Source: Candidatus Kaiserbacteria bacterium (GTDB lineage Bacteria; Patescibacteriota; Minisyncoccia; Phycocordibacterales; Phycocordibacteraceae). Taken from it: DNA of 64,000 nt. Shown in pieces: positions 11,398 through 45,843 of this stretch; the first letter of the stretch is position 1; every line of letters begins with the position of its first letter. The position numbers and the translations under genes are program-made. The stretch spans positions 788,562 through 852,561 of the forward strand of contig OY969413.1 in NCBI GenBank assembly GCA_963699165.1. Direction: 5' to 3'. The notes beneath the pieces are model-generated. The model was not told where the DNA came from, searched no databases, and saw only the letters and a list, made by a program, of their open reading frames with translations.

Positions 11398-11453
11398 ACC
11401 GACATCGTACTACCATTTGCCATTCCGCGGGAGGTAGCGTATATATAGGACAT

Positions 11454-11720
11454 ATGGCAATCACCAGTTCGGCAAAAAAGGCAATCCGCGTTTCCGCGCG
11501 GAAGCACGTATTTAACCTGCGCCGCAAGGACGCGCTCTACGACACGACCAAGTCGCTTACCAAGGCGCTTGCCGCAAAGGATGTCGCGGGAGCCGCAAAG
11601 CTTCTTCCGTCCGCATACAAGGCAATCGACAAGGCGGCAAAGCGCGGCGTCATCAAGAGCAATACGGCCGACCGAAAGAAGGCGCGCCTCGCGGCCGCAA
11701 TCAAACGAGCGCAGGCGTAA
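11454..11720 (+). CDS. rpsT: 30S ribosomal protein S20
   Basis: MAITSSAKKAIRVSARKHVFNLRRKD... is a basic 88-aa S20. The start is taken at the internal ATG 11454, not the track ORF start 11352. Confidence 0.85.
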   Translation: MAITSSAKKAIRVSARKHVFNLRRKDALYDTTKSLTKALAAKDVAGAAKLLPSAYKAIDKAAKRGVIKSNTADRKKARLAAAIKRAQA

Positions 11721-11794
11721 CGCTATGTGCTAGGGTTGAGTCGGGTCGTGCACCGTGCCCGACTTTTGGCAGACCAACACCATTTATTTTTAGT

Positions 11795-13117
11795 ATGAAA
11801 AAGCTGTACGGCGCGCAAACGGAAAAAGCTCTCGCGAATTTCCCTTTTCATTTTCGTAAAACACCGAAAGAATTTATTCGTGCAATCGTCGAAATAAAAA
11901 AAGCCGGCGCGATTGCGCATGGCAAAGCGGGGGAGCTCGATGCGGGAAGAAAGACGGCAATCGTAAAAGCATGCGATGAAATTTTGAAAGGGGAGCATGC
12001 CGAGCAGTTTGTGTTGCCGGCTTTTCAGGGCGGGGCGGGAACCTCGAATCACACAAATGTGAACGAAGTGATTGCAAATCGAGCGACGGAGATTTTGAAA
12101 GCATCCGGCTCGAAAAATGTTGTGCACCCGAACGACCACGTCAACATGTCGCATTCGACCAACGACGTGATGCCGTCTGCACTAAAAATCACTGCGTATC
12201 GTATCGCGGAGAAATTGCTCGCAACGTTCGATGTCGTTGCCGAAAGCTTTGATGCGAAAGCGCGCGAATTTAAAGATGTTGTAAAACTCGGTCGGACGCA
12301 TTTGCAGGACGCCGTTCCGGTAACGCTTGGGAGCGAGTTCGCGGCATATGCGGAATGTGTCCGCCGCGGAGCGCGAAGAGTTAAGACGGCATCGCATGAT
12401 TTGCTTGAACTTAACTTGGGCGGGACTGCCGTAGGAAATGCCATCAATTCGTCCGCACAGTATCGAAAGCAACTTTTTGTAGAACTCAAAGAAATAACCG
12501 GATTGAAAGTCGTGCCCGCGAAAAATCTCATGGCGCAGACGAGCAGCAACACGGACTTTGTGTGGCTCTCGCAGAGTTTGGTCGCCGTATGCGTTGACCT
12601 CTCGAAAATCTCTAACGACTTGCGGCTGCTTTCTTCGGGACCGCGGGGCGGCCTCGGCGAACTGTACATTCCTGAACTCCAGGCGGGTTCGGCGATTATG
12701 CCGGGCAAGGTCAATCCGGTTCTTATGGAAACGGTCAATCAATTGTATTTTTTGGTTTCGGGCAACAATCTTTCAATCGAGCATTCCGCGGAGGCGTCGC
12801 AGCTTGAGTTGGGAGTGATGCTGCCGCTTGTCGCCGACCGACTCATCGAGTCGCTCTCGCTTATGGACGAAGTGCTTTTGCAATTTGCGAAGAAATGCGT
12901 GGACGGCATTACGGCAAACAAAGGCCGCTGCCGCGAGCTTCTTGAAAAATCAACCGCGTATGCGACGCGCCTTACTCCGAAAATCGGCTATGACGCGACG
13001 GCGGAATTGGTAAAAGAGTCGGTTGCCGGGGGAAAAACCATCCGCGAATTGGCACTCGAGAAAAAATTGCTCACGAACGAGGAGTTCGATGCGCTGGTGA
13101 AAGGGTTTCGGCCGTAA
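11795..13117 (+). CDS. aspartate ammonia-lyase / class II fumarase family lyase; aspartase-like
   Basis: Signature GSAIMPGKVNPVLMETVNQ (the SS-loop, closer to AspA NPVVPEVVNQ than to FumC NPTQCE). 440 aa. Confidence 0.75.
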   Translation: MKKLYGAQTEKALANFPFHFRKTPKEFIRAIVEIKKAGAIAHGKAGELDAGRKTAIVKACDEILKGEHAEQFVLPAFQGGAGTSNHTNVNEVIANRATEILKASGSKNVVHPNDHVNMSHSTNDVMPSALKITAYRIAEKLLATFDVVAESFDAKAREFKDVVKLGRTHLQDAVPVTLGSEFAAYAECVRRGARRVKTASHDLLELNLGGTAVGNAINSSAQYRKQLFVELKEITGLKVVPAKNLMAQTSSNTDFVWLSQSLVAVCVDLSKISNDLRLLSSGPRGGLGELYIPELQAGSAIMPGKVNPVLMETVNQLYFLVSGNNLSIEHSAEASQLELGVMLPLVADRLIESLSLMDEVLLQFAKKCVDGITANKGRCRELLEKSTAYATRLTPKIGYDATAELVKESVAGGKTIRELALEKKLLTNEEFDALVKGFRP

Positions 13118-20049: not shown

Positions 20050-21390
20050 ATGAAAACAAAAACAGGCCCCGAGGGCCTGCGGATTGAGCATGTCTCAACC
20101 GCCGCCCTCAAACCCGCCGAATATAATCCCCGCACGTGGGACAAGGAAGCCGAGCAGCAGTTAAAGGAAAGTATTACCAAGTTTGGCATCGTCGATCCGA
20201 TTCTCGCTAACAGCGCACCGGAGCGCAGGGATGTCGTCATCGGCGGGCACTTCCGGCTCTCGGTCATCAAGGAGCTGGGCATCGAGACGGTGCCGGTGGT
20301 ATATCTCAACATCCCCGACATCGAGCGCGAAAAGGAACTTAACTTGCGGCTCAACAAAAACACTGGCGCGTGGGACGAAGCGCTGCTCGCAGAGTTCGAC
20401 GAGGCATTCCTCTCCACCGTCGGGTTCACCAGCGAGGAGATAGACGACATTTTCGCCATCGAAGAAACGCCGGAGCAATTCGACTTGGAGAAGGAACTCG
20501 CCAAGCTCGATATCAAAAACATCAATGTAAAGAAAGGCGACATCTACGACCTCAACGGCTCGCGCCTCATGTGCGGCGACAGTACTGTTGAGGAGGACAC
20601 GCTCAAACTCATGGATGGTGCAAAAGCTGACATGTGCTTCACCGACCCGCCGTATATCCTCGACTATCTCAAGGGCAAGACGAAGCAGAAGGATGGAGTG
20701 ACACGCGGATTCGGGGCGAAGAAAAATCGCGTGTACCTCGGTACCGAAACACTGCCGGAGAATTTCTCCGATCTTTGGATGGCAAATGTCGCTCTCGTAC
20801 AGAAGCCAGACTTCTCGATCATCATCTTCGAACATCCAAAGAACCTCCGCACCATATGGAACGCGATGGAGAAGCACTGGCGGTACCGCAACACCATCAC
20901 CTGGCATGTGCCCAATCGGGTGCAGGGCTTCTCTGCCAAGTACAAATTCTTCAACAAGCAGGATATCGCGCTAGTTGGTACGGGTGGCAATGTCGCGTTG
21001 GACATGGAACCCGAATCGGACACATTGCTCCAAACAGAATACGAGAACGCACTCTATGCCACTTCCGGCAAACCGCACTGGGAAGGATACGAGAAAGGCA
21101 AGAAATATCAACCCACCGACTTCATCGATCATATCGCAGCTGACCAAAAAAGTAGCGGCCAAGGCATCATATTCGGCACCAAACCTCTAGAATTGCTAAT
21201 CCCATACATCAAAGTGCTCACGAAGCGCGGAGACCTCATCTTGGAGCCGTTTGGAGGCTCTGGGAGCACTCTCATAGCCTCGGTAAAGATGCAGCGCCGC
21301 TGTTACCTCATGGAGAAGTCGCCTGTGTACGCCGAGGTCATCCTCAATCGCTGGTCAAGACTTACCGGTCTTACTCCAAAAAAGATATGA
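20050..21390 (+). CDS. ParB-like nuclease domain fused to an N6-adenine/N4-cytosine DNA methyltransferase (phage-type orphan methyltransferase)
   Basis: N-terminal ParB/Srx motif (LKPAEYNPRTWD), catalytic DPPY (FTDPPY) and C-terminal AdoMet motif FGGSGST, i.e. beta-class order. Confidence 0.8.
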   Translation: MKTKTGPEGLRIEHVSTAALKPAEYNPRTWDKEAEQQLKESITKFGIVDPILANSAPERRDVVIGGHFRLSVIKELGIETVPVVYLNIPDIEREKELNLRLNKNTGAWDEALLAEFDEAFLSTVGFTSEEIDDIFAIEETPEQFDLEKELAKLDIKNINVKKGDIYDLNGSRLMCGDSTVEEDTLKLMDGAKADMCFTDPPYILDYLKGKTKQKDGVTRGFGAKKNRVYLGTETLPENFSDLWMANVALVQKPDFSIIIFEHPKNLRTIWNAMEKHWRYRNTITWHVPNRVQGFSAKYKFFNKQDIALVGTGGNVALDMEPESDTLLQTEYENALYATSGKPHWEGYEKGKKYQPTDFIDHIAADQKSSGQGIIFGTKPLELLIPYIKVLTKRGDLILEPFGGSGSTLIASVKMQRRCYLMEKSPVYAEVILNRWSRLTGLTPKKI

Positions 21391-21860
21391 CCGAGACTAC
21401 CGAACCCTTCTCCATAGAGGAGAGGCAGGCGCATGACAAGCAGAAAGTGCTCGACGCGCTCAAGGAAATGCCAATAGTACAGATTGCGTGCAAGAAAGCG
21501 GGCATAAGCCGACCGACGTATTACCGCTGGCGGCAGGAGGACAAGATATTCAGACGGCAGGCCGTCGACGCGATGAACCACGGGGTCGAGTTCATCAACG
21601 ATATGAGCGAGTCGCAGATTATCTCTCTCATTAAAGACAAGAAACTGCAGGCCATGGCACTGTGGCTGAAGCACAACCATCCGAAGTACGGCGCCAAAGT
21701 CAAAGAATACACGCCCCTCAGCGCGGACGACGATCTGACCGAAGATGAGCAGAAAATTGTCATGGAGGCACTGTCGCTTATCGCGCAGGGAACACATAAT
21801 GTAAAACCATATGAACGAAACCGAACGCCTATCGACGCTGATAAATACGGCAAGAAATAA
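21387..21860 (+). CDS. phage terminase small subunit-like HTH protein
   Basis: HTH ACKKAGISRPTYYRWRQ. Its stop overlaps the large terminase start. Confidence 0.45.
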   Translation: MTETTEPFSIEERQAHDKQKVLDALKEMPIVQIACKKAGISRPTYYRWRQEDKIFRRQAVDAMNHGVEFINDMSESQIISLIKDKKLQAMALWLKHNHPKYGAKVKEYTPLSADDDLTEDEQKIVMEALSLIAQGTHNVKPYERNRTPIDADKYGKK

Positions 21861-22980
21861 CCCGAAGGTACGCCGGAGGCTCGGGCACGAGGACCCCCTC
21901 TACTTCGCCCTACTCTACCTCACGCATCACTTCAAGCATCCGCTGGCGCCCATGCACCTCGAGATGTTCGACATCGTGAAGCGTGGGGAGATAAACCTCG
22001 CGGCAGTCATGGCATTCCGTGAGTCGGGCAAGTCGACCATACTCAATACCGTGTGCGCGCTCTGGTCGATACTCTGCAAGCCGGAGCGCAAATTCGTGGT
22101 CATCGTGAGCAAGACGCAGGAGCAGGCGAAGAATCATTTCACCAACATCAAAGCGGAGCTTGAGCGCAATCCGTGGCTCAAGGAGGACTTCGGACCCTTC
22201 ACGGAGCGGCCGGAGGAGTGGAGCAAGCAATCGCTCGAGCTCGAGTACCACGGCGCGAAAATCCTCTCTGTCACCGCTCGCCAGAGTCTACGCGGGATGA
22301 AGCATCTCTCACACCGCCCCGACCTCATCATTATCGACGACGTGGAGGATGCTACATCAGTTAGGGACGATCGCTCGCGCGGCGACGACCTGTACCAATG
22401 GTATTTGGAAGAAGTCGTGCCGGCGGGGACCGACAAAACGCGCATCATAGTCCTCGGGAACCTGCTCTCAATGGTATTCGATGAGAAAAAGCCGGACTTT
22501 CTCGTCATGCGACTCCGGAGGGAGATACTCAGCCGCCGGCAGGTGGGTCTGTTCCGCGCCTACCCTCTCATCGACAATAACGGCGAGTGCCTCTGGCCAG
22601 GCAAGTACCCGACACGAGAATCCCTCAAAGTGCTGCGAGAGAAGGTAGGCCGAGGCCTCTGGCAGCGGGAGTACCTCCTCAAGGTATGGGGGCAGGAAGA
22701 TACTGCTTTAGTGGCCCCGCTGTTTTATGGAAGCGAACACGGCCGCTGGTCTATGGGGGCACACTTCATCACCATGTTCAATAAGGATGGATATACCGTG
22801 TATGACGGGGAGAATGGCGTTATGCTGCAACAGCCGCTCATCGCGCAGATGGCCAAATATGAAATTACGGCTCCGAGTATTCGAACCATGCTCTTCTACC
22901 CGACCAAAGACGACCCGCGCTTAAAGAAATACCTTGAAGGACTGCTGCTGGAGTGCGACTACCGGCATAATAGCGAGTGA
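21811..22980 (+). CDS. phage terminase large subunit-like ATPase
   Basis: Walker A RESGKST and Walker B LIIIDDVED in the spacing of the terminase ATPase domain. Confidence 0.6.
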   Translation: MNETERLSTLINTARNNPKVRRRLGHEDPLYFALLYLTHHFKHPLAPMHLEMFDIVKRGEINLAAVMAFRESGKSTILNTVCALWSILCKPERKFVVIVSKTQEQAKNHFTNIKAELERNPWLKEDFGPFTERPEEWSKQSLELEYHGAKILSVTARQSLRGMKHLSHRPDLIIIDDVEDATSVRDDRSRGDDLYQWYLEEVVPAGTDKTRIIVLGNLLSMVFDEKKPDFLVMRLRREILSRRQVGLFRAYPLIDNNGECLWPGKYPTRESLKVLREKVGRGLWQREYLLKVWGQEDTALVAPLFYGSEHGRWSMGAHFITMFNKDGYTVYDGENGVMLQQPLIAQMAKYEITAPSIRTMLFYPTKDDPRLKKYLEGLLLECDYRHNSE

Positions 22981-26412: not shown

Positions 26413-29400
26413 TCAGTAGAAATTCACCCCGCTCTTTTTGAGCTCACTCTCACGCGTATTGGTCAGTGAGAATTCGATTTGCGCGATTTCCTTCTCGTTC
26501 AGGTCGAAGAGTTTATAAACGATCTCGTCAATTTCATGTTCGATTTGTGTGACTGCGCCCATGTCGCCTGCAGCAGCTGCTTTTGTCGCCCGATCGGCAA
26601 GATCCGTAAGGCGGCCTTTGTCGGCGGGGTTCGCTGTAGGAATCGGCACTTTGGCCATTCGATCTCCTCGAAATTGCACTCGGCCCGCACTCCAAGGGTC
26701 ACCCCATGACGGAAATGTTGATCGATAGAACCAATCCATAACAGTGCTATTTAATATTGCCAATACGTACAGAGCGTCGGGCGTAAGAATTATAAAACCC
26801 GTTTTATTTATCGCGTTTCCTTCAGTATCTAGATATGCATGAAGTCGCTTCGAGGTTTCATTGAACACTATTTTCGGCTCATTGAATGCGGCGATATAAG
26901 ACTTCGATGGATTGTTATCCAGCTCAAGCCAGTGATGCTGGCCTTCGCCACCCCCGCGCCTTGACGTTTTACATTGCCCGCGAGCTTTTAGTAGATCTTC
27001 GAACCTGTTTAGATGATTCAGGACAGCAGGATATTTAGCCAGTTCTGTATTGAAGCCAAATGGAACTATAATTACATAAAACTGATGATATTCGTGAGTC
27101 CATCGTTTAATGTCGCGTCCACGAATCCATGGCTTTATCAACTCGGCCGATTTTGAATCCTCGCAGACTAATTTTTGCCGAGTGTCGCCATCTATCACGA
27201 ACGCTTCATTCAAACCCGTCTTAATACCGTAATAAAATCTGTCTTTAACATAATCCTCAAGCGGAGTACCGACAGATTTTAACTTTTCAATTAGCTCAAG
27301 CCCGGAACTACCTTCCAACGACCAGCCCTCCTCTTTCAGTTGTGACGGCGAGTAAATACTTTTCTGTTTGGTGATAACCTGCCGGAGCCACGCAATATCA
27401 GATTCATTTTTTACCACCAACGCAGTAATTTCGTCCGCTTCTTGTGCCTTTGATTTCTCTACAACCACGATCATTGGATCTGTCGATGCCTCAAAGACCG
27501 GAAGTTCGCAAAAATCAATTAGGTCGTGGATTCGATACGAGGAAAGCAGCTGTCGCAAGTTGCGGCCATACCCGGCCCGCTGAAATTTATTTGAACTGAT
27601 GAAGGAAAGGACGCCGCCTGTACGCAAAAGATTCAAACCGCGTTCATAAAAGAGACAGTAAATGTCACCACGGGCCGCAAAGGTCTTGTAACTTTTTCTC
27701 CACTCCGCCTGTTTAACGGTTCGAGCAAATTTTTCAATAGAGATATAAGGCGGATTGGCAATAACGATATCGAAACCGCCTTTTCGCTCTACTGCGGGGA
27801 AGAAATATCTGGTATCGAAAAATCCGACCGGCTTGTTTGTAAATATATTCTCGTAGCTGCCCCAAAGATTATTTATCCTAAGTCGTTCTTCGTGCTCATC
27901 CTCATTTTTTTCTGCCAGTAACTTTCTATGTTTTTCGTCTTTAACGACACTAAACGAGCGCAAAATACTCTCCAACTCTTTTTTTGTTCTGTCAGTTATC
28001 AACTGCTGCAATTTCCTGCCAACCTCTAATTTATGCAACTGGTCTACTGGGGCAAAATATTCATCGATGAGTTCGCCCAGTTCTACTGCAAACGTGTCTC
28101 CAAATAGCGGTCCTTCGTGGACCGGTGGTTTTGTGAGTGTGTCGGCACAAACGAATTTAAAGTCGAGGTTGGGTAACGGGTCGATGCCTCTATTGGGAGC
28201 ACTGTCGTCAACGCGTTGATCGACAACAAGCGTGAGAAAGCAACGCAGTCGCGATATGTCGGTCGCTACTGGCTGAATGTCGACTCCGTGAATGCATTCT
28301 CGAATCACACCTAACTTTCGGACATAGGGAAGGTTGTGTTCTTGCAGCTGTCTGCGCACCTCTACTGGCAGTTTACTCAGGTAAATGGAGCAGTCAGGAT
28401 CAAGGATTCCAAGCATGCGCACCAAGTGTTGAAGCACTCCGATGGGAAATGCGCCAGAGCCGCATGCTGGATCTAAAACCGCTGTTCCGTGTATTGCTTC
28501 CACGATCGTCCTCCTTTCATTTTCAGGAATCGGGTACTGTAAATCGTCTTCAACGTCGTATGTCGAGAGAGCACGTATCTTTTCCTCGGAAAAGCCAGTT
28601 TTAGTCACCAAATGACTAACAATCGCTTCCTCTACCATGAAATCAACAATTTCGCGTGGCGTATAAAAACTTCCGGTTGCACTTCGTGCACTGTCACCAG
28701 TTTCGGGATTTACCTCGGCAAGAAGATTTTCAAATATTCTTCCCAGCATTTCAGGGTCGATGGAGAGCTCTGTATCTATCGAGGTATTCTCATCGATTGT
28801 GAAGTTATACTCCTCGAAAATCCCGAATAATCCCGCAAACCATTCATCGGGAACTACAACAGATCCACGTCGGTCGCTCATGCCCGTAGTACGGTTAAAT
28901 TTGTGATTGTCTTCTGCGTGGTCCTGAAACAGACCTCCATTTAGAAATGGCACCATCTCGAATAGGTCGGAATGCCTAAAAAAGGATGGCCTAGAGTTGT
29001 GCGGCTTATTCAGTACTTCAAAAAAAAGTGGCACACAAAGGGAGTGATAATAATCCCCGGTTCTCGTCACCGCATCGACTGAAAGTAAATCGGACGGAAT
29101 TAGCGGTATACCTTCATTGCTTTTCTTTTGCTTCAAAAACCAGCAAAAAACAAGACGACCAATAAGCCGTATTGCGAAGTTGGCATACACGTCATCGCTT
29201 TGCGCTCCCAGAGCAAGGGTTCTTTGAAATGATACTGCACGCCTTCCTTCGCCTCTTACACCCCCAACCAGCTTAGAGTATTGCTCCGCAATTCGCGTAT
29301 AAAATTCCTTGCTTACGACTTCAAGCGAGAAGCGACTCAAGAGGTCGTCGGTGTCTTTGACACGACCGTGTTTTACGAGTTGTTGTTCCGGGGTCTTCGT

Positions 29401-29805
29401 TTTCGCGCCGACACCGAGATAAAAAGAATAGCGACGAGCATTGGAATACTTTGCGACGATCTTGTTCTTTTCGTTGAGATCGAGCGAAATGGTGAGGTAC
29501 GAGAGGCGATAGTTCTCAGATTCGTTGTTTTTGAAAATTACAAGTGCCTTGTCGTAGCCGAAAGTGGCGAGGATTTTGAACGCATCGGTCGCAATGGAAA
29601 CACGCGGGTCTGTCTCCTTTGCATGGGTCATTTCGAGTACGTAGGTATTGAGCGAGGGGGCGTGGCCGAGCTCGCGCGCTTTCGTGATTATCTTACATCG
29701 CGATAGATCAGCGATGTCTTTTTCTTTCTCAACATAATCCTCAGGCAGAAAATCTTGAAGAAATGCCGAAAATGCATCGGGGTTGTATTTTTGGTCAAAC
29801 TTCAT
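26413..29805 (-). CDS. MmeI/PglX/Eco57I-superfamily gamma-class N6-adenine DNA methyltransferase with a C-terminal TaqI/Eco57I-type target-recognition domain
   Basis: 1130 aa. AdoMet motif I VLDPACGSGAFP and catalytic motif IV IANPPYIS. Helical-domain motifs RLVFCWF and PFLNGGLFQD parallel MmeI RLLFCLFAED / PYINGKLFE. C-terminal YGIKTGLNEAFVIDGDT is TaqI_C-like. Low GC. Confidence 0.85.
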   Translation of the reverse strand: MKFDQKYNPDAFSAFLQDFLPEDYVEKEKDIADLSRCKIITKARELGHAPSLNTYVLEMTHAKETDPRVSIATDAFKILATFGYDKALVIFKNNESENYRLSYLTISLDLNEKNKIVAKYSNARRYSFYLGVGAKTKTPEQQLVKHGRVKDTDDLLSRFSLEVVSKEFYTRIAEQYSKLVGGVRGEGRRAVSFQRTLALGAQSDDVYANFAIRLIGRLVFCWFLKQKKSNEGIPLIPSDLLSVDAVTRTGDYYHSLCVPLFFEVLNKPHNSRPSFFRHSDLFEMVPFLNGGLFQDHAEDNHKFNRTTGMSDRRGSVVVPDEWFAGLFGIFEEYNFTIDENTSIDTELSIDPEMLGRIFENLLAEVNPETGDSARSATGSFYTPREIVDFMVEEAIVSHLVTKTGFSEEKIRALSTYDVEDDLQYPIPENERRTIVEAIHGTAVLDPACGSGAFPIGVLQHLVRMLGILDPDCSIYLSKLPVEVRRQLQEHNLPYVRKLGVIRECIHGVDIQPVATDISRLRCFLTLVVDQRVDDSAPNRGIDPLPNLDFKFVCADTLTKPPVHEGPLFGDTFAVELGELIDEYFAPVDQLHKLEVGRKLQQLITDRTKKELESILRSFSVVKDEKHRKLLAEKNEDEHEERLRINNLWGSYENIFTNKPVGFFDTRYFFPAVERKGGFDIVIANPPYISIEKFARTVKQAEWRKSYKTFAARGDIYCLFYERGLNLLRTGGVLSFISSNKFQRAGYGRNLRQLLSSYRIHDLIDFCELPVFEASTDPMIVVVEKSKAQEADEITALVVKNESDIAWLRQVITKQKSIYSPSQLKEEGWSLEGSSGLELIEKLKSVGTPLEDYVKDRFYYGIKTGLNEAFVIDGDTRQKLVCEDSKSAELIKPWIRGRDIKRWTHEYHQFYVIIVPFGFNTELAKYPAVLNHLNRFEDLLKARGQCKTSRRGGGEGQHHWLELDNNPSKSYIAAFNEPKIVFNETSKRLHAYLDTEGNAINKTGFIILTPDALYVLAILNSTVMDWFYRSTFPSWGDPWSAGRVQFRGDRMAKVPIPTANPADKGRLTDLADRATKAAAAGDMGAVTQIEHEIDEIVYKLFDLNEKEIAQIEFSLTNTRESELKKSGVNFY

Positions 29806-32800
29806 GCGGCTATCAATTCTTCGGACAGCACTATTAACTTTCCTGCATCGTTCGCGCGATCAGCGGTTTCAAAAATGCTCTCAAGATACTTTTGGGGCAC
29901 GAGTTCCTTGAGCGCGATGAATGCCTTACCGAGATTATCTTTTTCCATTCGCAAGTCGCCAATTTCTTTGAGCACGCCGTACGGAAGGCCGTCGAGATCT
30001 TTGATGGTCTTGATGATATCATCGCATAAATCTTTCGCGGGCGAATGATTTTCGGATAGGAACTTGAGATTTTTAAGCGCATCCTGCTTGCGGCGGCCGG
30101 TAATCGGTGGTTTGGTATTGTCCTTAAATATGTGTTCTTTGGCGATTTTGTATATTGGCTCGAAGTTTACCGTCGTTTCTAACGCTTTCTCCCCTTCAGT
30201 GATGTCATTGAAGAGAGGGAGCGCGATTTCCGGTGCAACGATTTGCACGGTCTCCGGTGTTTTACCGAACGCAAAAACAAAGTTGCCGCTCCTTTTTGCG
30301 AGCGCAACAACACCCGGGATGGCAAACTTACGAGCAATACGAGCCCGGTGCGGAATGGAGGCAATCTGCTTCCTGATTTCGGGATCGTGCCGGAAACGCA
30401 TCCACTCGTCCCGATATTTCGCATCCCACGACAAACTCTCGCTCTTATTCTTTTCTTCCTGATACTGCTTGGCAAAGTAGTTTTTGAGGTCTTCGTCTTT
30501 GGTGAAGATTTTGGTGTCCTCACCTAGCAAAGAATGGATCAAGTCCATTTTCAGCGTCGAAATAGCCCGCGTGTGGGTTTCCACTTCCCCGGTTGTCGTT
30601 GGGAAGAAGTTGAAAATATATAACTCATCAAATACCTTTTTGTTGATACGGTTGATGCGACCGACGCGTTGAATTACACGCGTCGGGTTATATGGAATAT
30701 CGTAGTTTATAACCGCCCCAGCACGGTGAAGGTTAAACCCTTCGGAGATGGCGTCGGTGGCAATGATGATGTCATAGTCGTCGGATTGCTTCGCCTTTTC
30801 AAGGCCGGCATCAAAGTTCTTTTGGATGATCTCCTTGTTGCTTTTCGACGAGTCCTCCGAACTGTATTTATAGACACGCTTGATGCCCTCGGCAGCAAGC
30901 TTGTCGGAGACGTAGTTTGCCGTATCAGTAAACTCGGTGAAGACGATAATTTTGCGTTTCGGTTCGTTCTTGATGGACCGCGTGATTTTTTCTTTGAAAA
31001 AATCATACTTTGGGTCGGTTTCTACCTTGAGCCACTTTTCCTGTACCTTTTCCAGGAGCGTAATGTCCTTCTCAAGTGCGGCACGAAATTGCGGTTGCAT
31101 TTCAGAGACTGGGATTTCGATGAGCCCTTTATCTTTGAGTCGCCCGAACAGCTCCTCGATCTCTTCGGCAGTCTTTTCTTCCAGTTCTTCAGTTGTCGGA
31201 AGTGCGCCCTTTTTAAAAATCGGAACAACGCCTTTATTATCGTACCAGTCGAGCATCGTCTCCGACGAAGCGATCATGTTTTTAAGCGAAGCACGGAACG
31301 AGCCGATAGAGCTTTCAAACCGGCGCACGAGCAAACGTCGCATGAACTTGGCGACGTTTGCCTGTGCTTGCGTGATCCGTTGGATTTTCTCTTCAGCTGA
31401 GATGTCACTTTCTTCGTCTTCTTCAGCTTCTATAAGTTCTTTGATGAACTTTGATCCGGTTTTGATGTAGCTTGCAGGCTTGTAGCGCACACCCTCGAAA
31501 CTCTCCGATTTATCGGAGGACGATATTTGCTCAAGCGTCTCAATGTAGAGAGGAGTGAGTTCGCCGAGGTCGTACTCAAGGATTTCCGGGTCGCGTACTT
31601 CCGCGAACGCAACACCCTGTTTCTCAAGGTCTAGGCGATAGTCCTCGATTTCTTTGAGATCAAGGCGAGAGCGACGAATAACAAGTGGCTCTATCATTTT
31701 CCGCAGTTCTGCGGCGATGGCGTGAAGTTCTGTTTGAACCTCTGATATTCCTTCAAGCCCGTTTTGCTTGGATGATTTCCGTATCTCACGGCGTATGTTT
31801 TTGTAGCGCTTGAAGAGTTCATGGAATGAGATGCTCAGGTTTTCGACGGTCTTGATAGTCGACTGACCAGGCGTGCTGAAAAGCTTAATGAGCGCGTAAA
31901 TGTCTTTTGGGTCATTGTTGAATGGGGTTGCCGAGAGCGCCATGACGGAATTGCCCGCACAGAGTCGGTGGAGCACTTTATAGTTGTCAGTATCTTCATT
32001 GCGGTGCTTATGAGCTTCGTCGAGAACAATGAGTACGTTTTTGTCGTTGCCATGTCGCTCTAAGGCTTTTTCGATTTCTCCAGTGGTATACACGAAGCCG
32101 TTGAAGTTGAAGCCCGAACGATAGTCATCCCACTGCGCCTTTAGATGCGGGGGCGCAATGATAATTGTCTTTCGGTCGAGATTGTGCGCGATGGTAGAAG
32201 CAATGATACTTTTGCCAAGACCGACGACATCAGCGATGATGACTCCACCGAAACGCTTGATGCGGTCTATACCAAGATTTACAGCATCTTTTTGGTACTT
32301 AAGATCGATGAACTTGCCGTCGGTGATCTGCTGCGGCGTCTTCATGCCATCTATCTCCTCGACGGAAAAATACTCGTCGAGAACGCGGTAATACATCAAC
32401 TTCGGGTCAGGCAACTGATAGAGCCAAATACGTTTTTTGACTTCAGCGATGAACTCGTCCGAGATGTTGATGTCGGTGATGGTTATATTACTCGGGTCAT
32501 TCCACGCAGCCTCAAATTCTCCAAAATGCTGTTCGTAGTAGTGCTTTTCAGAAAGTACGAGATTGTGTTCCCTTTGTCCCTTGAGACCGGAGTAGGTGAG
32601 ATTACTTGAGCCCACAAAGACCATGCCCGGTTTTTCACCATTCTCAGAGTACTCTGGTTTATGGTGGAGGATATAAAACTTGGCGTGGTTTGCCTCGGCA
32701 GTCTTCCTTATTAGTAAGCTGCCGTCTTTTATTTTGCTCAAGAAAATCTCAAAGGCTCTTTGCGACTCTTCATTATCGAAGTAGTCAGTATCGTTGAAGA

Positions 32801-33098
32801 TTTTTGAAAAACTCTCGATATACTCATTGCGCGCACTTGAACGAGTAGAGATTTTTGTACCCACCGCATGGTCGTCAAGGTCAAGGCCGTCAAATGATGA
32901 GATTTTTTCGATAATTTTCTTATCGATATCCATTCCGACGAGGATACGAATTGTTTTATCTTTCAGCTCTTCGTGTAAATCGCGAAAACCAGAAAAATAG
33001 AAATAGCCGACGAGAGCATCAATCCGGTCACTTTTGGGCAAAATCTCCTTGAGTTTTGAGGAAAGTGTGTTCTCGCCAACGTTGGTAATTGAGGGCAT
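29802..33098 (-). CDS. phospholipase-D-family nuclease domain fused to an SNF2/Rad54-family (SF2) DNA translocase ATPase
   Basis: 1098 aa. N-terminal PLD HxK motif NHAKFYILHH...VGSSNLT. Walker A GLGKS, DEAH box LDEAHKHRN, motif III LSATPF, helicase-C IIATDAISEGFNL and motif VI QRVGRINR. It overlaps the methyltransferase gene by 4 bp (ATGA). Confidence 0.85.
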   Translation of the reverse strand: MPSITNVGENTLSSKLKEILPKSDRIDALVGYFYFSGFRDLHEELKDKTIRILVGMDIDKKIIEKISSFDGLDLDDHAVGTKISTRSSARNEYIESFSKIFNDTDYFDNEESQRAFEIFLSKIKDGSLLIRKTAEANHAKFYILHHKPEYSENGEKPGMVFVGSSNLTYSGLKGQREHNLVLSEKHYYEQHFGEFEAAWNDPSNITITDINISDEFIAEVKKRIWLYQLPDPKLMYYRVLDEYFSVEEIDGMKTPQQITDGKFIDLKYQKDAVNLGIDRIKRFGGVIIADVVGLGKSIIASTIAHNLDRKTIIIAPPHLKAQWDDYRSGFNFNGFVYTTGEIEKALERHGNDKNVLIVLDEAHKHRNEDTDNYKVLHRLCAGNSVMALSATPFNNDPKDIYALIKLFSTPGQSTIKTVENLSISFHELFKRYKNIRREIRKSSKQNGLEGISEVQTELHAIAAELRKMIEPLVIRRSRLDLKEIEDYRLDLEKQGVAFAEVRDPEILEYDLGELTPLYIETLEQISSSDKSESFEGVRYKPASYIKTGSKFIKELIEAEEDEESDISAEEKIQRITQAQANVAKFMRRLLVRRFESSIGSFRASLKNMIASSETMLDWYDNKGVVPIFKKGALPTTEELEEKTAEEIEELFGRLKDKGLIEIPVSEMQPQFRAALEKDITLLEKVQEKWLKVETDPKYDFFKEKITRSIKNEPKRKIIVFTEFTDTANYVSDKLAAEGIKRVYKYSSEDSSKSNKEIIQKNFDAGLEKAKQSDDYDIIIATDAISEGFNLHRAGAVINYDIPYNPTRVIQRVGRINRINKKVFDELYIFNFFPTTTGEVETHTRAISTLKMDLIHSLLGEDTKIFTKDEDLKNYFAKQYQEEKNKSESLSWDAKYRDEWMRFRHDPEIRKQIASIPHRARIARKFAIPGVVALAKRSGNFVFAFGKTPETVQIVAPEIALPLFNDITEGEKALETTVNFEPIYKIAKEHIFKDNTKPPITGRRKQDALKNLKFLSENHSPAKDLCDDIIKTIKDLDGLPYGVLKEIGDLRMEKDNLGKAFIALKELVPQKYLESIFETADRANDAGKLIVLSEELIAA

Positions 33099-33198: not shown

Positions 33199-34539
33199 TT
33201 GTGTTGTATGCAAACCATAACCGTGCCGGTGGGGCTTCCGGCCAAGCCAATACAAGCCCCCGTACGGGTCAGGTACTGCCTGTACGCCCGCAAGAGTACC
33301 GAAAGCGAGGAACGCCAAGTCCTCTCCATAGACAGCCAGATCAAGGAGATGCTCCAGCTGGCAGAGCGGGAGGGGCTGGAGATCGTGGAGCTCAAACGCG
33401 AGAGCCACTCTGCGAAAGAGACCGGCCAGCGACCGATTTTCAACGAGATCGTCGAGGAGCTCAAGGCGGGTAAATTCAACGGCATCCTCACGTGGGCACC
33501 GGATCGTATCAGCAGAAATGCCGGTGACCTCGGCAAGATCGTAGATCTCATGGACGCAGGTGTGCTGCAAGAGATACACACGTACAGCCAGAGCTTCAGG
33601 AACAATCCGAACGAGAAGTTCCTTCTCATGATATTGGGGAGCCAGGCGAAACTTGAGAATGATAACCGAGGTGTGAATGTGCGGCGCGGACTAAGAACGC
33701 GCTGCGAAATGGGTTTGCGTCCCGGCGTTGCGCCGACCGGCTATATCAACGAGTACACGAAGGAGCAGAATGCCGCGAAGCGCTGCCACGCCGTCATCGA
33801 CCCCGTGCGCGGCCCCATCATCAAGAAGATGTTCGAGAAGGTAGCAAACGAGAAATGGAGCGGTCGCAAGCTCCATCACTGGCTCAAATTCGATATCAAC
33901 TTTAAGTCCAAGGGCAACAAGAACCTCTCCCTCGGCAACATCTACGTCATCCTCCAAAATCATTTCTACTACGGCACCTTCGAGTACCCGGAGAAGAGCG
34001 GCAACTGGTACCACGGCAAGCATGAGCCGCTTATCTCGAAGGAGCTTTTCGACGCCGTCCAGGTGCACCTGAAGCGCGATCAGATCGTGCGCTCGGAGAT
34101 AAAAGAATTCGCCTTCACGAAGCTCATGGTCTGCGGCTCCTGCGGCTCGGGCATCTGCGCCGATGAGAAGTTCAAGCGCCTCAAAGACGGCACCTCAGCC
34201 CGCTATGTCTACTATGGCTGTACCCGCCACAAGGACAAGAGCTGCAAGAACGGCTATGTACGCGAGGAGGCCTTAATCGAGCAGATGGTGAAGGTGATGG
34301 ACGACGTGGACTTCAACAAGATAGCTATGCGGGAGAAGTTCGAGGAGGAGATGGAGCGGCTCAAGAAGTTCCAGCGCATGTTCGCCAGCGGAGACTCTGC
34401 ACCAAAGAAAGACATTGATCTCTGCGACTATGCGAAGTATCTTCTTCGCAACGGCAGTCTCACAGAGAAGCGCGAGCTACTGCTCTGTATCAAGAGCAAG
34501 TTGGTGCTGAAGAAAGGGGTGTTAGGACTGGAGAAATAG
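33199..34539 (+). CDS. large serine recombinase (resolvase/invertase N-domain, recombinase domain, zinc ribbon)
   Basis: Catalytic region VRYCLYARKSTESEERQ...SIDSQ, recombinase domain and CGSCGS...C..C zinc ribbon. 446 aa. Confidence 0.85.
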   Translation: MCCMQTITVPVGLPAKPIQAPVRVRYCLYARKSTESEERQVLSIDSQIKEMLQLAEREGLEIVELKRESHSAKETGQRPIFNEIVEELKAGKFNGILTWAPDRISRNAGDLGKIVDLMDAGVLQEIHTYSQSFRNNPNEKFLLMILGSQAKLENDNRGVNVRRGLRTRCEMGLRPGVAPTGYINEYTKEQNAAKRCHAVIDPVRGPIIKKMFEKVANEKWSGRKLHHWLKFDINFKSKGNKNLSLGNIYVILQNHFYYGTFEYPEKSGNWYHGKHEPLISKELFDAVQVHLKRDQIVRSEIKEFAFTKLMVCGSCGSGICADEKFKRLKDGTSARYVYYGCTRHKDKSCKNGYVREEALIEQMVKVMDDVDFNKIAMREKFEEEMERLKKFQRMFASGDSAPKKDIDLCDYAKYLLRNGSLTEKRELLLCIKSKLVLKKGVLGLEK

Positions 34540-34712: not shown

Positions 34713-35150
34713 CTAAATGGGCTGCTTGATTTTTGCGTATTCTATTTTGCAACCGACGATTCCGAAGGCCTCGTGGCAATTCACTACTGGCGACATCCAA
34801 CCCGGAACTTTTGGTAAGGTGCCGAAGTCAAGTGCGGTTTCCTGAGTGCCAGAAAACACCACCAACTCCCGATCAACGACCGGCGATTGCTCTGCAAGTT
34901 TGAAGCCGTTCTTTCGCAAGAAATCAGCCACCACCTGTCCGACCTTCTTTGGAGAGTAAATCTCGACGTACCCCTTCGGTAGCAAAACCTTAGCAAGGGC
35001 GGCTTCTGCATCAACCGGCGTCTCATAAATCTCATCCAATATGTATTCGGTTGCGTAACCAGAGCCGACACTTGAGTCTACGATTTCAGCGGCGGCTCTC
35101 CATTTGCCGTCCTCCGAGCGCTGCTGTGGTTTTGAGTAGTAGAAAAGCAT
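34713..35150 (-). CDS. hypothetical protein, third gene of the ClpP-like cassette
   Basis: 145-aa ORF. A 3-nt gap to the upstream gene suggests an operon. Confidence 0.4.
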   Translation of the reverse strand: MLFYYSKPQQRSEDGKWRAAAEIVDSSVGSGYATEYILDEIYETPVDAEAALAKVLLPKGYVEIYSPKKVGQVVADFLRKNGFKLAEQSPVVDRELVVFSGTQETALDFGTLPKVPGWMSPVVNCHEAFGIVGCKIEYAKIKQPI

Positions 35151-35152
35151 AG

Positions 35153-36490
35153 TTAATGTTGTACCAACTTCGCAGTCATCAGTCTGACGACATTCCTCAC
35201 CGATTCAAACACCAGCCCGATGGTCGCCTCATCAGCGACGATGAATCCGCGATGTGCGTATTGGCACCTGGCTTTATATAGTTTATCAAACCAAGGAAGA
35301 AGTGAGGCATCGAGGGCGTGTATTGCACCCACGATGTATTTTACATTGTCGTTAATAACGGCTTCGGGTACGAATAGGTGCTCAAGACAGCAATAAAGCA
35401 GGAGCAGTTTCGCGCCGAGATCAGAGACTTGGGTTGCAGAACTCAAAATATCTAGCGATGGTGCCACGTTAGACATACTCTCCTTGCTCCAGGGATTCTC
35501 GAGGAGATCAAAGATTAGCTTGTTATCGACAATGAATCTTTTCATCCCGCCGAATGTTCGCGTGTCGAGCCACATCGGCGAGAGGCCGCGATACCCAAAG
35601 GAGCGGAAAAGACAGCCGTCTGGGAATTTAGCCCACGGCTCTTTCCGATCCTCATGCCATGCAAAAACTCCTATGGTGCGAGCCCCAAGAAACACGGGAG
35701 TAGTGGGCGCTTCAATTTTGACATCAAAGCCGAAATCTATTTGCCCGTGGTGAACAAAGCCCGCGATTCGAAGTAAGTTCAGGAATGCACGAAGCGAGGC
35801 GGAGGCATAAAGGTACGCGTATGTCTCTGTGCCGGTAACCGTAAATCCTATGGATGGACTTGAGAAGAATTGCCGAGCGCTCGGGAGTGTGAGCTGCCGT
35901 AGATGTGGCTGTAACTCCTTGAACTTCTGCTCCAATGCATCGTCCTCAAGGTAACAAGAAAAAGGTGCTTCGAGCCCAACAAACATGTCTTCAAAGAATT
36001 CTCTGGCACCGCCCATCTCGGTTCGGAACTCAGTTATGTGAGTTATGAGGGTGCGCTCTTTAATCGAACCATCAAGTAATTCGAAATGACGATTGAGTAC
36101 ATCTTCCGCTGGTGATTCGCGCTCGCGCCAATCGAAACGGAATGCGGGCTCCTTAAGGTAGAAGAGGCCTCCGCCCGTTCGTTGAATAAACTCTTGCTCT
36201 GTGTCCGTAGCGAAAACGAGCTTGTAGTGGAACAAGATGTCAAGAATATCTAGCGGAGAAAATCTCAAACCATTCTCATGAAAGACTCGGCATTCTTCCT
36301 TGATTTCATCGAGCATTGGTTTGCGTTGAAAATATTGTTCTTTCCTCCACTTATCTTGGAGCGGCATAGCACGAGCACGACCGACTTCGCTGTCGGCGAG
36401 CCGCTCTATGCGGGAATAGGCCTCCAGTCCGATCCTTTCCTTCAGCTCTTCCACTCGTGGCATACGGGTGATTATAGACCGGCTGCCCAT
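35153..36490 (-). CDS. hypothetical protein with a C-terminal HEPN-like Rx4H motif
   Basis: 445 aa. C-terminal KARCQYAHRG (R-x4-H). No other recognisable domain. Confidence 0.45.
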   Translation of the reverse strand: MGSRSIITRMPRVEELKERIGLEAYSRIERLADSEVGRARAMPLQDKWRKEQYFQRKPMLDEIKEECRVFHENGLRFSPLDILDILFHYKLVFATDTEQEFIQRTGGGLFYLKEPAFRFDWRERESPAEDVLNRHFELLDGSIKERTLITHITEFRTEMGGAREFFEDMFVGLEAPFSCYLEDDALEQKFKELQPHLRQLTLPSARQFFSSPSIGFTVTGTETYAYLYASASLRAFLNLLRIAGFVHHGQIDFGFDVKIEAPTTPVFLGARTIGVFAWHEDRKEPWAKFPDGCLFRSFGYRGLSPMWLDTRTFGGMKRFIVDNKLIFDLLENPWSKESMSNVAPSLDILSSATQVSDLGAKLLLLYCCLEHLFVPEAVINDNVKYIVGAIHALDASLLPWFDKLYKARCQYAHRGFIVADEATIGLVFESVRNVVRLMTAKLVQH

Positions 36491-36508
36491 AAAATGCGGT
36501 CCCGACGT

Positions 36509-37156
36509 TTAGCCAGGAAGAGTTGCGAGATACTGATCCGTAATGTAGAGAACGCCTGCGGTGGGGATTTTCGGAAGCTCAATTTTGTCGAGGAAGCCAT
36601 ACTTTTGCGCGTCCGCAGCATGATAAGTTGCCGACTTTAATGCCGCATTCCGGACAGCCGCAGCTGTCAGATTTTTAGAACCCCGTGAGGCTGTTTCTTT
36701 TATGATAATCTTTTGGGTCTTCTCGTCCGTCGCGGATAGTGCAGCGTTTTGTGTTGCTAGGTCAAAGACATTGAACTGCTCGGGCAATGCCGTTCTTGGC
36801 ATCGTTGTCTGGTGCACCATAAAACTACAGTCCGGTACGCCAACTCGGTTCTGGAAGCTCAGGAAAAACGGGACGCCGGCTGAGGCAACATTTCCCATGT
36901 TATAGACGGTGGTTTTCTGAGGAATGGATTTAATAAAATTGTAGAGGCTTATCGCCGAGAATGGGCTGCCACCGATCGTCGATAGATAGACGACATATTC
37001 AGAAATGTTCTGTCCTGTCTGGGCTTGGTTGAGGATGAACCCGATGAAAACATCTTCCATTTTCTTGCTGATCAAAACACTGCACCAGATGTGCTGGACC
37101 TTGGGAGGTTGTGCTGTTTGAACTGGAGGCATGAGAGTCATTGTACGCTCATGCAA
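36509..37156 (-). CDS. ClpP/S14-family serine peptidase-like protein
   Basis: ClpP-fold motifs YLSTIGGSPFSAISLYN and GNVASAGVPF (catalytic Ser region) ... MVHQ. Confidence 0.55.
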   Translation of the reverse strand: MHERTMTLMPPVQTAQPPKVQHIWCSVLISKKMEDVFIGFILNQAQTGQNISEYVVYLSTIGGSPFSAISLYNFIKSIPQKTTVYNMGNVASAGVPFFLSFQNRVGVPDCSFMVHQTTMPRTALPEQFNVFDLATQNAALSATDEKTQKIIIKETASRGSKNLTAAAVRNAALKSATYHAADAQKYGFLDKIELPKIPTAGVLYITDQYLATLPG

Positions 37157-37238
37157 AATAAACCGAAAGATTCATTCAGTTCGAGTCCCTCCCGCCCTCC
37201 AATAGGAGAAGGTCGGTAAACACTAGCGCCCTAGACTG

Positions 37239-37325
37239 CGGAAGGGGTGAGATTCGAACTCACGGTCCCCGTTAAGAGACGGCGGATTTCAAGTCCGCTG
37301 CGTTAGACCACTCTGCCACCCTTCC
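37239..37325 (-). tRNA. tRNA-Ser (anticodon TGA), type II with a long variable arm
   Basis: Hand fold: acceptor GGAAGGG/CCCTTCC, anticodon arm GCGGA-CTTGAAA-TCCGC, variable hairpin, T-arm GTGAG-TTCGAAT-CTCAC. Close to the E. coli Ser tRNA pattern. Confidence 0.8.
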
Positions 37326-44580: not shown

Positions 44581-44664
44581 GCCCAGGTGGCGAAATTGGT
44601 AGACGCACTACCTTGAGGTGGTAGCTCTCGCAAGGGATTGGAGGTTCGAGTCCTCTCCTGGGCA
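44581..44664 (+). tRNA. tRNA-Leu (anticodon GAG), type II
   Basis: Hand fold: acceptor GCCCAGG/CCTGGGC, D-arm GCG-AAATTGGTAGA-CGC, anticodon arm CTACC-TTGAGGT-GGTAG, variable arm, T-arm GGAGG-TTCGAGT-CCTCT. Confidence 0.8.
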
Positions 44665-44740
44665 CAACAGTCAGAGACCGTGTTTGCGACCGTTTGGCTC
44701 TAGAAGACAGGTAAAAATGGTTCGGTACCTTTCGGGGTGT

Positions 44741-44789: not shown

Positions 44790-45843
44790 CTAATTTTCGA
44801 TAGCCACCTTCCGGTCTTTCAGGATGATCCTTCCCTTGAGATGCCCGAGTAGTTCCCGCTGTTCCGATGGTGTCCCGTTCTCAAGAAGATACTTTGCGTA
44901 CTTCCGTATATCCATTTCGTCTGCCTTCACCTTCTCACTTTTGTCCTGCATGGCCGCCCGGAGCTTGTTGTACCGGGATACCTCTCTTTCGATGAGATGC
45001 CGAGCCCCAATCTCGTCGATGCTGATGCTCTCTAACAGTACGAGTAGTTGCTCGATGAGCCGATCCTCTCGGATATAGGGATTCTTGCAGGCACGATCCT
45101 TGGACTTGGAACAGGAGTAGTAGGTGTAGAAGTGAAAGCCGCCGCCCGCCGCGTCCTTCTGCTTCTCTTGGGACGTGATGCCGCTCCCGCATATCCCACA
45201 GACCATGAGCTTGGTGAAGGTCGTATCGTGCGTCTTTTGCTTGGGGCGGCTCTCCTCAGCAAGTTTCTCCTGCACCGCCTGGAATAGGTCGCGCGTGATG
45301 AGTGGGGTGTGCTTGCCGGTATACCAGTTGCCACTCCCTCGGGGATACTCGAAGACCCCGCAGTATAGCGGGTTCCGCAGAAGGTTATAGATATTGCTCA
45401 AGCTCATGGTCTTATTCGTGCGCGAGAGGAAGTGTAGGTCGCTCTTGAGCCAGTGATATATCTTCCTTCCGCTCCACCTTTCGTTCCCGACCTTCTCGAA
45501 CATTTGCTTCATCACTCCCGAGCGCACAGAGTCTATGAGCATCTCGCACTTGTGGTCTGAGCGTTTGTCATTTAGGTAGCCGCACGGTGCCAAGCCCGGC
45601 CAGAGTCCCATCTCCGCTCTGGCCTTGAGCCCGCGCTTCACGTTGATGCGCTTGTTGTCGTTCTCGAGCTTCGCTTGGCTCCCTAATATCATGAGAAGGA
45701 ACTTTTCGTTCGGGTTATTGCCGAAACGTTGGCCATAGGTGCGGATGTCTTTCAAGAGCCCCTGATCCATAAGGTCGACGATGCGGCCGAGGTCACCTGC
45801 ATTTCTGCTGATGCGATCCGGTGCCCATGTCAGGATGCCGTTG
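44790..45843 (-). pseudogene. large serine recombinase lacking its catalytic N-terminus, truncated by IS3 copy 2
   Basis: Paralog of the 33199-34539 product from residue about 110 onward ([18 protein letters not shown]...). The reading frame runs open up to the IS3 end at 45844. No resolvase catalytic domain. Confidence 0.75.

Follow-up and report, generated by a model that had tools for sequence, protein, structure and literature searches.

A previously unannotated protein family with a HEPN-like C-terminal domain, carried as accessory cargo of integrated elements in Candidatus Kaiserbacteria and other bacteria

A protein of 436 amino acids (aa) encoded in a 64,000-nucleotide (nt) stretch of a Candidatus Kaiserbacteria genome (contig OY969413.1, positions 788,562 to 852,561; hereafter the window, whose own numbering is used for all coordinates) founds a previously unannotated family, which combines a novel N-terminal alpha/beta region of ~300 aa with a C-terminal HEPN-like bundle. 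Its gene lies between those of a ClpP-like peptidase and a 145-aa protein, all three on the minus strand and beside tRNA-Ser, and the first-pass annotation of the window had taken the trio for one functional cassette. That annotation is partly supported: the HEPN-like character of the large protein, the non-housekeeping nature of the genes and the setting among mobile genetic elements and defence genes hold, while the three-gene cassette does not. Judged by comparative evidence, the three genes do not appear to make up one conserved system, and their adjacency is better explained as that of cargo gathered at the recombinase-proximal end of integrated elements. We lean, with some reserve, towards reading the 436-aa protein as an abortive-infection-type RNase of the HEPN type, a single-gene module that travels as independent mobile cargo.

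The large protein has no fewer than 229 full-length homologues, at 45-60% identity and all labelled hypothetical, and the family amounts to ~230 clusters at 90% identity. Searched against 1.84 billion representatives, the family profile returns 82 clusters at 50% identity, all of them family members or fragments; the family is therefore closed, without bridging annotated relatives. The large protein has zero matches in Pfam, PADLOC, PHROGs and NCBIfam, and the family profile has none among PDB sequences even at E ≤ 10. Homologues occur in many classes of Patescibacteria, in Acidobacteriota (Terriglobia), in Verrucomicrobiota and in Bacteroidota (Draconibacterium, Labilibacter). Identity is 43-50% for members in the first three of these phyla and 38-39% for those in Bacteroidota, values that are high for such phylogenetic distances and argue for horizontal spread.

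In the HEPN superfamily (Pfam clan CL0291), an Rx4H motif stands where helix 3 ends, and a conserved acidic residue lies in helix 2 (PMC3710099). The AlphaFold2 (AF2) models of the large protein (full length: predicted local distance difference test score, pLDDT, 87.5, and predicted template modelling score 0.88; residues 308-445 of the 445-aa open reading frame, ORF, modelled as a domain: pLDDT 90.9) place the HEPN-like domain at residues 336-444 (35159..35485, minus strand), with helices at 336-352, 358-373, 383-414 and 421-444. The motif R408-C-Q-Y-A-H413 (within KARCQYAHRG; 35252..35269, minus strand) ends helix 383-414 and is followed by a loop, residues 415-420, that leads to the fourth helix. 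E370 (35381..35383, minus strand), in a CCLEHLF motif, lies within helix 358-373; its helix position makes it the candidate for the conserved acidic residue of helix 2, the Ex3[KR] spacing that HEPN domains often show being absent there (EHLFV).

An Rx4H by itself carries no weight, since 61% of shuffles of the large protein contain one and a second copy, at residue 146, is unconserved; it is conservation alone that gives the R408/H413 motif its significance. In 47 sequences across two alignments, reaching down to 26% identity, R408 is invariant (47/47) and H413 and E370 are each conserved in 46/47, the sole exception, P0248, having lost both. The motif is a conserved feature of the family, and in the model it sits where a HEPN motif belongs. 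The top Foldseek matches of the C-terminal domain include the HEPN proteins 4nqf, 2hsb (template modelling scores 0.47/0.51, root-mean-square deviation, rmsd, 4.6), 9oij (HepS) and 7ae6 (HepT). Taken together, the four-helix topology, the Rx4H at the end of helix 3, the acidic residue of helix 2 and the HEPN proteins atop the Foldseek list make it fairly likely that the large protein belongs to the HEPN superfamily.

Several results weigh against this assignment. None of the Foldseek matches is significant: those to HEPN proteins all have E ≥ 0.48 (best 0.48), and bundles of four helices are prone to promiscuous matching. No Pfam HEPN model matches the large protein even at E ≤ 1, NCBIfam, PADLOC and PHROG are likewise empty, and the PDB profile search with the family alignment (E ≤ 10) gave no HEPN link. 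When the C-terminal profile was compared by hhalign with four neighbouring HEPN-type proteins, probabilities stayed below 1%, although three of these non-significant comparisons paired the Rx4H motifs with each other. Finally, 44/47 sequences have Cys directly behind the Arg and the remainder L, N or S, whereas a polar N, D or H at that position of HEPN domains is typical, though not obligatory (PMC3710099).

The same observations would suit a bundle that is not a HEPN RNase at all, in which Arg, His and Glu serve some other chemistry or a structural role together with a loop in the N-terminal region. This PDGCLFRSFGYRG loop (PDG...S..GYRG; residues 290-302, 35585..35623, minus strand; alignments A1 and A3 and the AF2 model) is conserved more strongly than any other stretch outside the HEPN-like domain; its P290, D291 and S297, as well as K361, are as invariant as R408, and the Cys after the Arg is atypical. 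We nevertheless regard this alternative as unlikely, because the four-helix topology, the position of the Rx4H, the helix 2 acid and the HEPN-topped Foldseek list together amount to a HEPN signature. Residues 296-302 of the loop have pLDDT <50 and are predicted to be flexible; the loop may be a regulatory or active-site loop, with a flexible lid, a second active site and an interaction loop as candidates. No fold in PDB or the BFVD matched the N-terminal ~300 residues. Separately, six homologues (P0247, P0249, P0250, P0252, P0254 and P0261; alignment A3) carry Trp at otherwise invariant Gly positions (for example G292 of this loop, and DLGAK to DLWAK), changes that probably reflect genomes with UGA=Gly (code 25) translated as UGA=Trp in the source databases.

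The genomic surroundings of the homologues are those of accessory cargo. Integrases and recombinases are the sole recurrent neighbours of the family: large serine recombinases with 53-60% identity to that of the window lie near its genes in seven loci (L012, L015, L020, L026, L035, L040 and L067). In L067, the family gene is terminal in the element, between dnaX and, in convergent orientation, a serine recombinase gene followed by those for TerL, TerS and methyltransferases; in the Prim-Pol element of L065, it comes immediately after a tyrosine integrase; in the acidobacterial locus L003, it is inside a prophage with capsid, HNH and integrase genes. The family behaves as accessory cargo of integrated elements, as shown by the recurrent integrases and by its positions in L067, L065 and L003. 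In L040, the family gene stands beside Shedu SduA_C, MmeI and two serine recombinases. The mobile, defensive reading has to accommodate the homologues that are found among housekeeping genes (L066), the absence of the family from IMG/VR, from INPHARED phages and from PLSDB plasmids, and the lack of any PADLOC match for it.

The prominence of large serine recombinases as the only recurrent neighbours, with the family gene often nearest the recombinase or the att end, could also mean that the large protein serves the life cycle of the element itself instead of defence, for instance by setting the directionality of the serine recombinase, by assisting it in some other way or by processing RNA. 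A directionality role is unlikely, since the family also occurs with tyrosine integrases (L003, L065) or without a recombinase nearby (L001, L066). The cross-phylum spread at 38-50% identity is typical of cargo, and the conserved residues form an RNase-type rather than a DNA-binding motif; a life-cycle function is accordingly a poor prospect. A side observation concerns the Peregrinibacteria homologue of L016/L065: just downstream of it, a 246-aa gene (11404-12144) with no Pfam match carries RSALFH, another Rx4H, and may be a further unrecognised HEPN-type gene.

In the window itself, three minus-strand ORFs of 215, 445 and 145 aa are confirmed within 34713-37156, next to a tRNA-Ser(UGA) gene (37238..37325, minus strand; ARAGORN) that lies upstream of all three and marks the host-side border of the island; the co-directional arrangement beside tRNA-Ser that had been described is thereby verified. 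The peptidase ORF reaches 37156 (215 aa from a TTG) and that of the large protein 36490, yet homologue alignments and the deposited models P0121 and P0001 indicate that translation most likely starts at Met9 (37132) and Met10 (36463), respectively. The predicted products are then a ClpP-like (S14) peptidase of 207 aa (36509..37132, minus strand) and the large protein of 436 aa (35153..36463, minus strand); the 145-aa ORFan (34713..35150, minus strand) begins 2 nt downstream of the latter. The reported gaps of 18 nt (peptidase to large protein) and 2 nt (large protein to 145-aa protein) stand as ORF-to-ORF distances, but with the likely starts the first becomes ~45 nt. Promoter and terminator scans of the locus gave results at or below shuffle expectation and are uninformative, so that co-transcription of the three genes is suggested by their spacing alone. 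Their tight spacing in the window nevertheless leaves room for co-transcription and for functional interplay at this locus, which tells against treating the genes as fully independent.

Beyond the window, the trio dissolves. In 32 loci of GTDB representatives with a large-protein homologue, tblastn with the ClpP-like and 145-aa proteins found neither (0/32), and with further metagenome loci included (~35 loci in all, drawn from Patescibacteria, Acidobacteriota, Verrucomicrobiota and Bacteroidota) no ClpP-like gene adjoins a large-protein homologue. When the ±4 neighbours of the homologues were clustered, only a serine-recombinase cluster and a tyrosine-integrase pair recurred, and a Pfam scan of 104 neighbours within ±2 positions revealed no family in more than three members. 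Many homologues form a transcription unit of their own, having opposite-strand genes or long gaps on both sides. The proposal of a three-gene functional cassette is not supported by these counts, nor by the nearest relative, which keeps the 145-aa gene but lacks the ClpP-like one; in PADLOC-DB v2, the catalogue suggested for checking the defence assignment, all three proteins lack a family match at E ≤ 1.

The 145-aa protein matches no family in Pfam, PADLOC, PHROGs or NCBIfam and has a single homologue among 5.8 billion clusters (P0242, 60% identity), whose gene lies 4 nt after a 60%-identical large-protein homologue in L040-L042, where the ClpP-like gene is absent. The partner is limited to the window and L040-L042, and no toxin-antitoxin arrangement is conserved across the family. 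The retention of a 2-4 nt spacing in both lineages that have the pair, and of the same 60% identity in both proteins, would fit a toxin-immunity or effector-modulator pair confined to a subclade, the small protein neutralising or tuning the large one. Tightly coupled downstream genes are found elsewhere as well, encoding proteins of 250 aa in L066 (gap 3 nt), 109 aa in L012 (overlap 4 nt), 261 aa in L018 (gap 11 nt) and 216 aa in L026 (gap 20 nt). These downstream genes are mutually unrelated, however, and in many loci there is none or the next gene is on the opposite strand, which indicates that the large protein has no general need of an antidote; the 145-aa protein, moreover, has no antitoxin-like domain. 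We therefore judge a dedicated two-gene pair to be unlikely; the 145-aa protein was added recently in this lineage and is possibly a modulator.

The ClpP-like peptidase has a history of its own. It matches PF00574 at E 3e-13 (50.5 bits, gathering cut-off 20.2; profile positions 27-178 of 182), which secures its identity as a ClpP/S14 relative, while all NCBIfam ClpP models score far below threshold (TIGR00493, 21.9 bits against a cut-off of 308.6; PRK00277, 31.5 against 249). Ser87 and His110 are invariant in the family alignment, whereas at the position aligned with ClpP's catalytic Asp (the second one in DTDRDN; counted by hand in the HMMER alignment) the family varies between S, T, A and G, leaving the triad incomplete. 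The TIGR00493 score and the missing Asp bear out the view that this is not the housekeeping ClpP; consistently with the earlier description, the window has no Clp ATPase, the canonical ClpP partner being likewise absent from it. Family-specific invariant motifs are found at the N-terminus (QHIWCS..KKMEDV) and at the C-terminus (LYITDQYLATLPG). The ClpP-like family comprises more than 120 clusters at 60-90% identity, in Patescibacteria, Aminicenantales, Levyibacteriota and others.

The closest PDB sequence is 9uxt, ClpP1 of Pseudomonas plecoglossicida (PpClpP1; E 6e-8 over a stretch of ~60 residues that includes the active-site Ser). PpClpP1 is an atypical ClpP with Ser-His-Pro; it assembles into tetradecamers, its intrinsic activity is low and it fails to bind ClpX (PMC12900304). 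Both have the ClpP fold, Ser and His but no catalytic Asp, and a non-canonical N-terminus; the ClpP-like family differs in its own N- and C-terminal motifs and in riding on mobile elements. Phage head-maturation proteases (NF045542, phrog_94, phrog_1684) give weak profile matches as well (E 6e-8, 3e-7), and the element in the window has terminases. A prohead-protease role was considered and rejected: the score is 32.8 bits against a cut-off of 120, and no ClpP-like locus has a capsid or portal neighbour. The family is also absent from IMG/VR and INPHARED.

Neighbours of the ClpP-like gene differ across ~19 independent loci. A large serine recombinase lies within ~6 kb of it in the window, L038, L062, L068 and L069, and the gene is often the last before host DNA (L068, L070, the window). 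The peptidase thus appears as a separate, atypical Ser-His ClpP relative travelling on similar elements, and the simplest reading is that the large-protein and ClpP-like genes populate the same accessory hotspot. Two further observations concern this family. On the Microvirga megaplasmids L071 (NZ_CP016620.1) and L072 (NZ_CP102846.1), ClpP-like genes, 45-47% identical, occur with a divergent CopG-family regulator in stress and transport surroundings, outside defence islands. In L053, L054 and L070 (5796-5996), a conserved lysine-rich ORF of 66 aa lies 4 nt upstream of the ClpP-like gene; in L070, where an inserted element has its edge, it adjoins genes for a DNA methylase and for an S24 repressor resembling LexA.

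These loci bear on the possibility that the three genes of the window are, after all, a single system encoded by one operon, the HEPN-like effector being processed, activated or held back by the peptidase. All three are on one strand, with gaps of 18-45 nt and 2 nt and no terminator-like site between them; a trypsin-like protease follows the large-protein homologue in L003; and elsewhere ClpP-like genes adjoin HEPN-type genes of other families, namely DUF4145 in L039 (7289-7765), TPR+HEPN_LA2681 in L043 (1373-3088; E 3e-39) and, in L062 (2667-3764), a protein of 365 aa that contains RNATLH and matches Swt1-HEPN weakly. Other neighbours are DUF4238 and HNH_5. Against a single system stand the facts that no other large-protein homologue has a ClpP-like neighbour, that the closest relative retains the 145-aa gene without the ClpP-like gene, and that most ClpP-like loci lack a HEPN neighbour, the Microvirga copies lying among stress and transport genes; we consider it improbable. 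Alternatively, the peptidase could be a portable gate for interchangeable HEPN RNases (the 436-aa family, DUF4145, TPR-LA2681-HEPN and Swt1-like): it would continuously degrade or process the RNase, which would be unleashed when a phage interferes with proteolysis. A HEPN-type immediate neighbour is present in 4 of ~19 independent ClpP-like loci (the window, L039, L043 and L062), by rough estimate above the defence-island background. Literature searches returned nothing relevant on a ClpP-like protein paired with HEPN or defence, and we consider such gating improbable.

In the single-gene interpretation that we favour, the 436-aa protein would act as a self-contained module. Its C-terminal ~110 residues would form the HEPN bundle, in which R408, H413 and E370 would make up a metal-independent endoRNase site, HEPN activity of this kind leaving 2',3'-cyclic phosphate ends, and the N-terminal region of ~300 residues, with its conserved loop, would serve as a trigger sensor or hold the RNase inactive. 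Once a competing phage infects, the protein would become active, cleave tRNA or another RNA and stop translation, protecting the element and the host population. Family membership, conservation, distribution, mobility, the topology of the predicted fold and the fact that no partner is conserved are direct results of the analysis; that the protein is an RNase, that it senses a trigger and that it serves defence is proposed by analogy with known HEPN systems.

The nearest analogue is HepS, a single HEPN protein, encoded by the Gifsy-1 prophage, in which detection of infection and the response to it are combined (PDB 9oij; PMC13043305). Both are lone cargo on an integrated element, act or would act as a single polypeptide and have a helical domain with a HEPN-type Rx4H, superposed by Foldseek with an rmsd of 4.4 Å over 93 columns; the match is non-significant (E 3.3), there is no detectable sequence similarity, and HepS is a protein of 186 aa, whereas the 436-aa protein has the additional N-terminal region of ~300 aa. 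With the HEPN abortive-infection and defence families described by Anantharaman et al. in 2013 (AbiD/F-Abi2, AbiJ, AbiU2, AbiV, LA2681-like, Swt1-like, DUF4145; PMC3710099), the protein shares an architecture in which the HEPN domain comes at the C-terminus, behind an N-terminal domain that varies, and residence in restriction-modification or defence islands and prophages; it differs in matching no Pfam HEPN model at E ≤ 1, in the Cys after the Arg and in belonging to a closed family (82 clusters at 50%). HepT of the type VII HEPN-MNT toxin-antitoxin system HepT/MntA (7ae6, 4nqf-like) likewise has a minimal bundle with Rx4H ~70% along the domain. By contrast, no locus of the 436-aa family has an MNT nucleotidyltransferase partner, there is no conserved antitoxin gene, and the 436-aa-family protein is three times larger.

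The island in which the three genes lie combines packaging, restriction and recombination genes. On the plus strand, a ParB-N6/N4 methylase gene (20050-21390) is followed by genes for the small terminase TerS (21387-21860) and a short, 389-aa large terminase, TerL (21811-22980), all recognised by Pfam/PHROGs. Between the terminases and the type IIG gene come tRNA-Pro, an HsdS fragment, an IS3-type transposase and DUF2726. On the minus strand, a gene for a type IIG restriction-methylase of 1130 aa (26413-29805; strong PADLOC match) overlaps by 4 nt that for a PLD(HKD)+SNF2 helicase of 1098 aa (29802-33098; PADLOC DrmD and 'HKD+Snf2'); preceded by DUF2726, the IS3 transposase and the HsdS fragment, they are likely a two-gene restriction or DISARM-like pair. 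A large serine recombinase with Resolvase, Recombinase and Zn_ribbon_recom domains is encoded at 33199-34539 on the plus strand, convergent with the three genes, and past tRNA-Ser the host genes DUF5652, RuvX and PilM follow. The description of a defence island beside a recombinase is borne out by the restriction-modification gene, the helicase, the IS3 transposase, DUF2726 and the recombinase. In line with the statement that the window has no phage capsid genes, no capsid gene was seen; phage genes are not lacking altogether, since the terminase genes at 21387-22980 are present.

In the window, ~10 kb of tRNA-Pro, insertion sequence and restriction genes separates the packaging module from the serine recombinase. 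The ParB-methylase/TerS/TerL module with a related recombinase and a 436-aa-family gene is found also in three other Patescibacteria loci (L020, L026 and L067), a recurrence that suggests a family of prophage-like or satellite-like elements in bacteria of the Candidate Phyla Radiation (CPR). The locus in the window is best described as a series of cargo genes, each mobile on its own, that line up at the end nearest the recombinase in such an integrated prophage-like element beside tRNA-Ser. A search for att-type direct repeats flanking the island returned just chance-level matches of 17-23 nt and leaves the element borders undefined, as is expected for serine recombinases. Elsewhere in the window, a second large serine recombinase, N-terminally truncated (44790-45770, minus strand), adjoins tRNA-Leu(gag) (44581-44665); it keeps the Recombinase and Zn_ribbon_recom domains, the Resolvase domain being reduced to a tail, and is probably a remnant of another tRNA-integrated element.

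For the reading of such islands, the locus shows that the tight spacing of three genes in one genome is here an unreliable sign of a functional cassette, and it draws attention to prophage-like CPR elements that bear serine recombinase and terminase genes. Were the peptidase a gate after all, the locus would exemplify a protease-guarded HEPN abortive-infection module not yet described. If the HEPN assignment is right, the 436-aa proteins constitute a new compact HEPN family outside current profile libraries and defence catalogues, with a large N-terminal domain of its own. Most of the family is found in Patescibacteria (CPR) and in Acidobacteriota from soil, lineages in which mobile elements and immune repertoires have been little charted, and, if the interpretation is true, it would add a single-gene abortive-infection candidate comparable to HepS and directly testable in a heterologous host.

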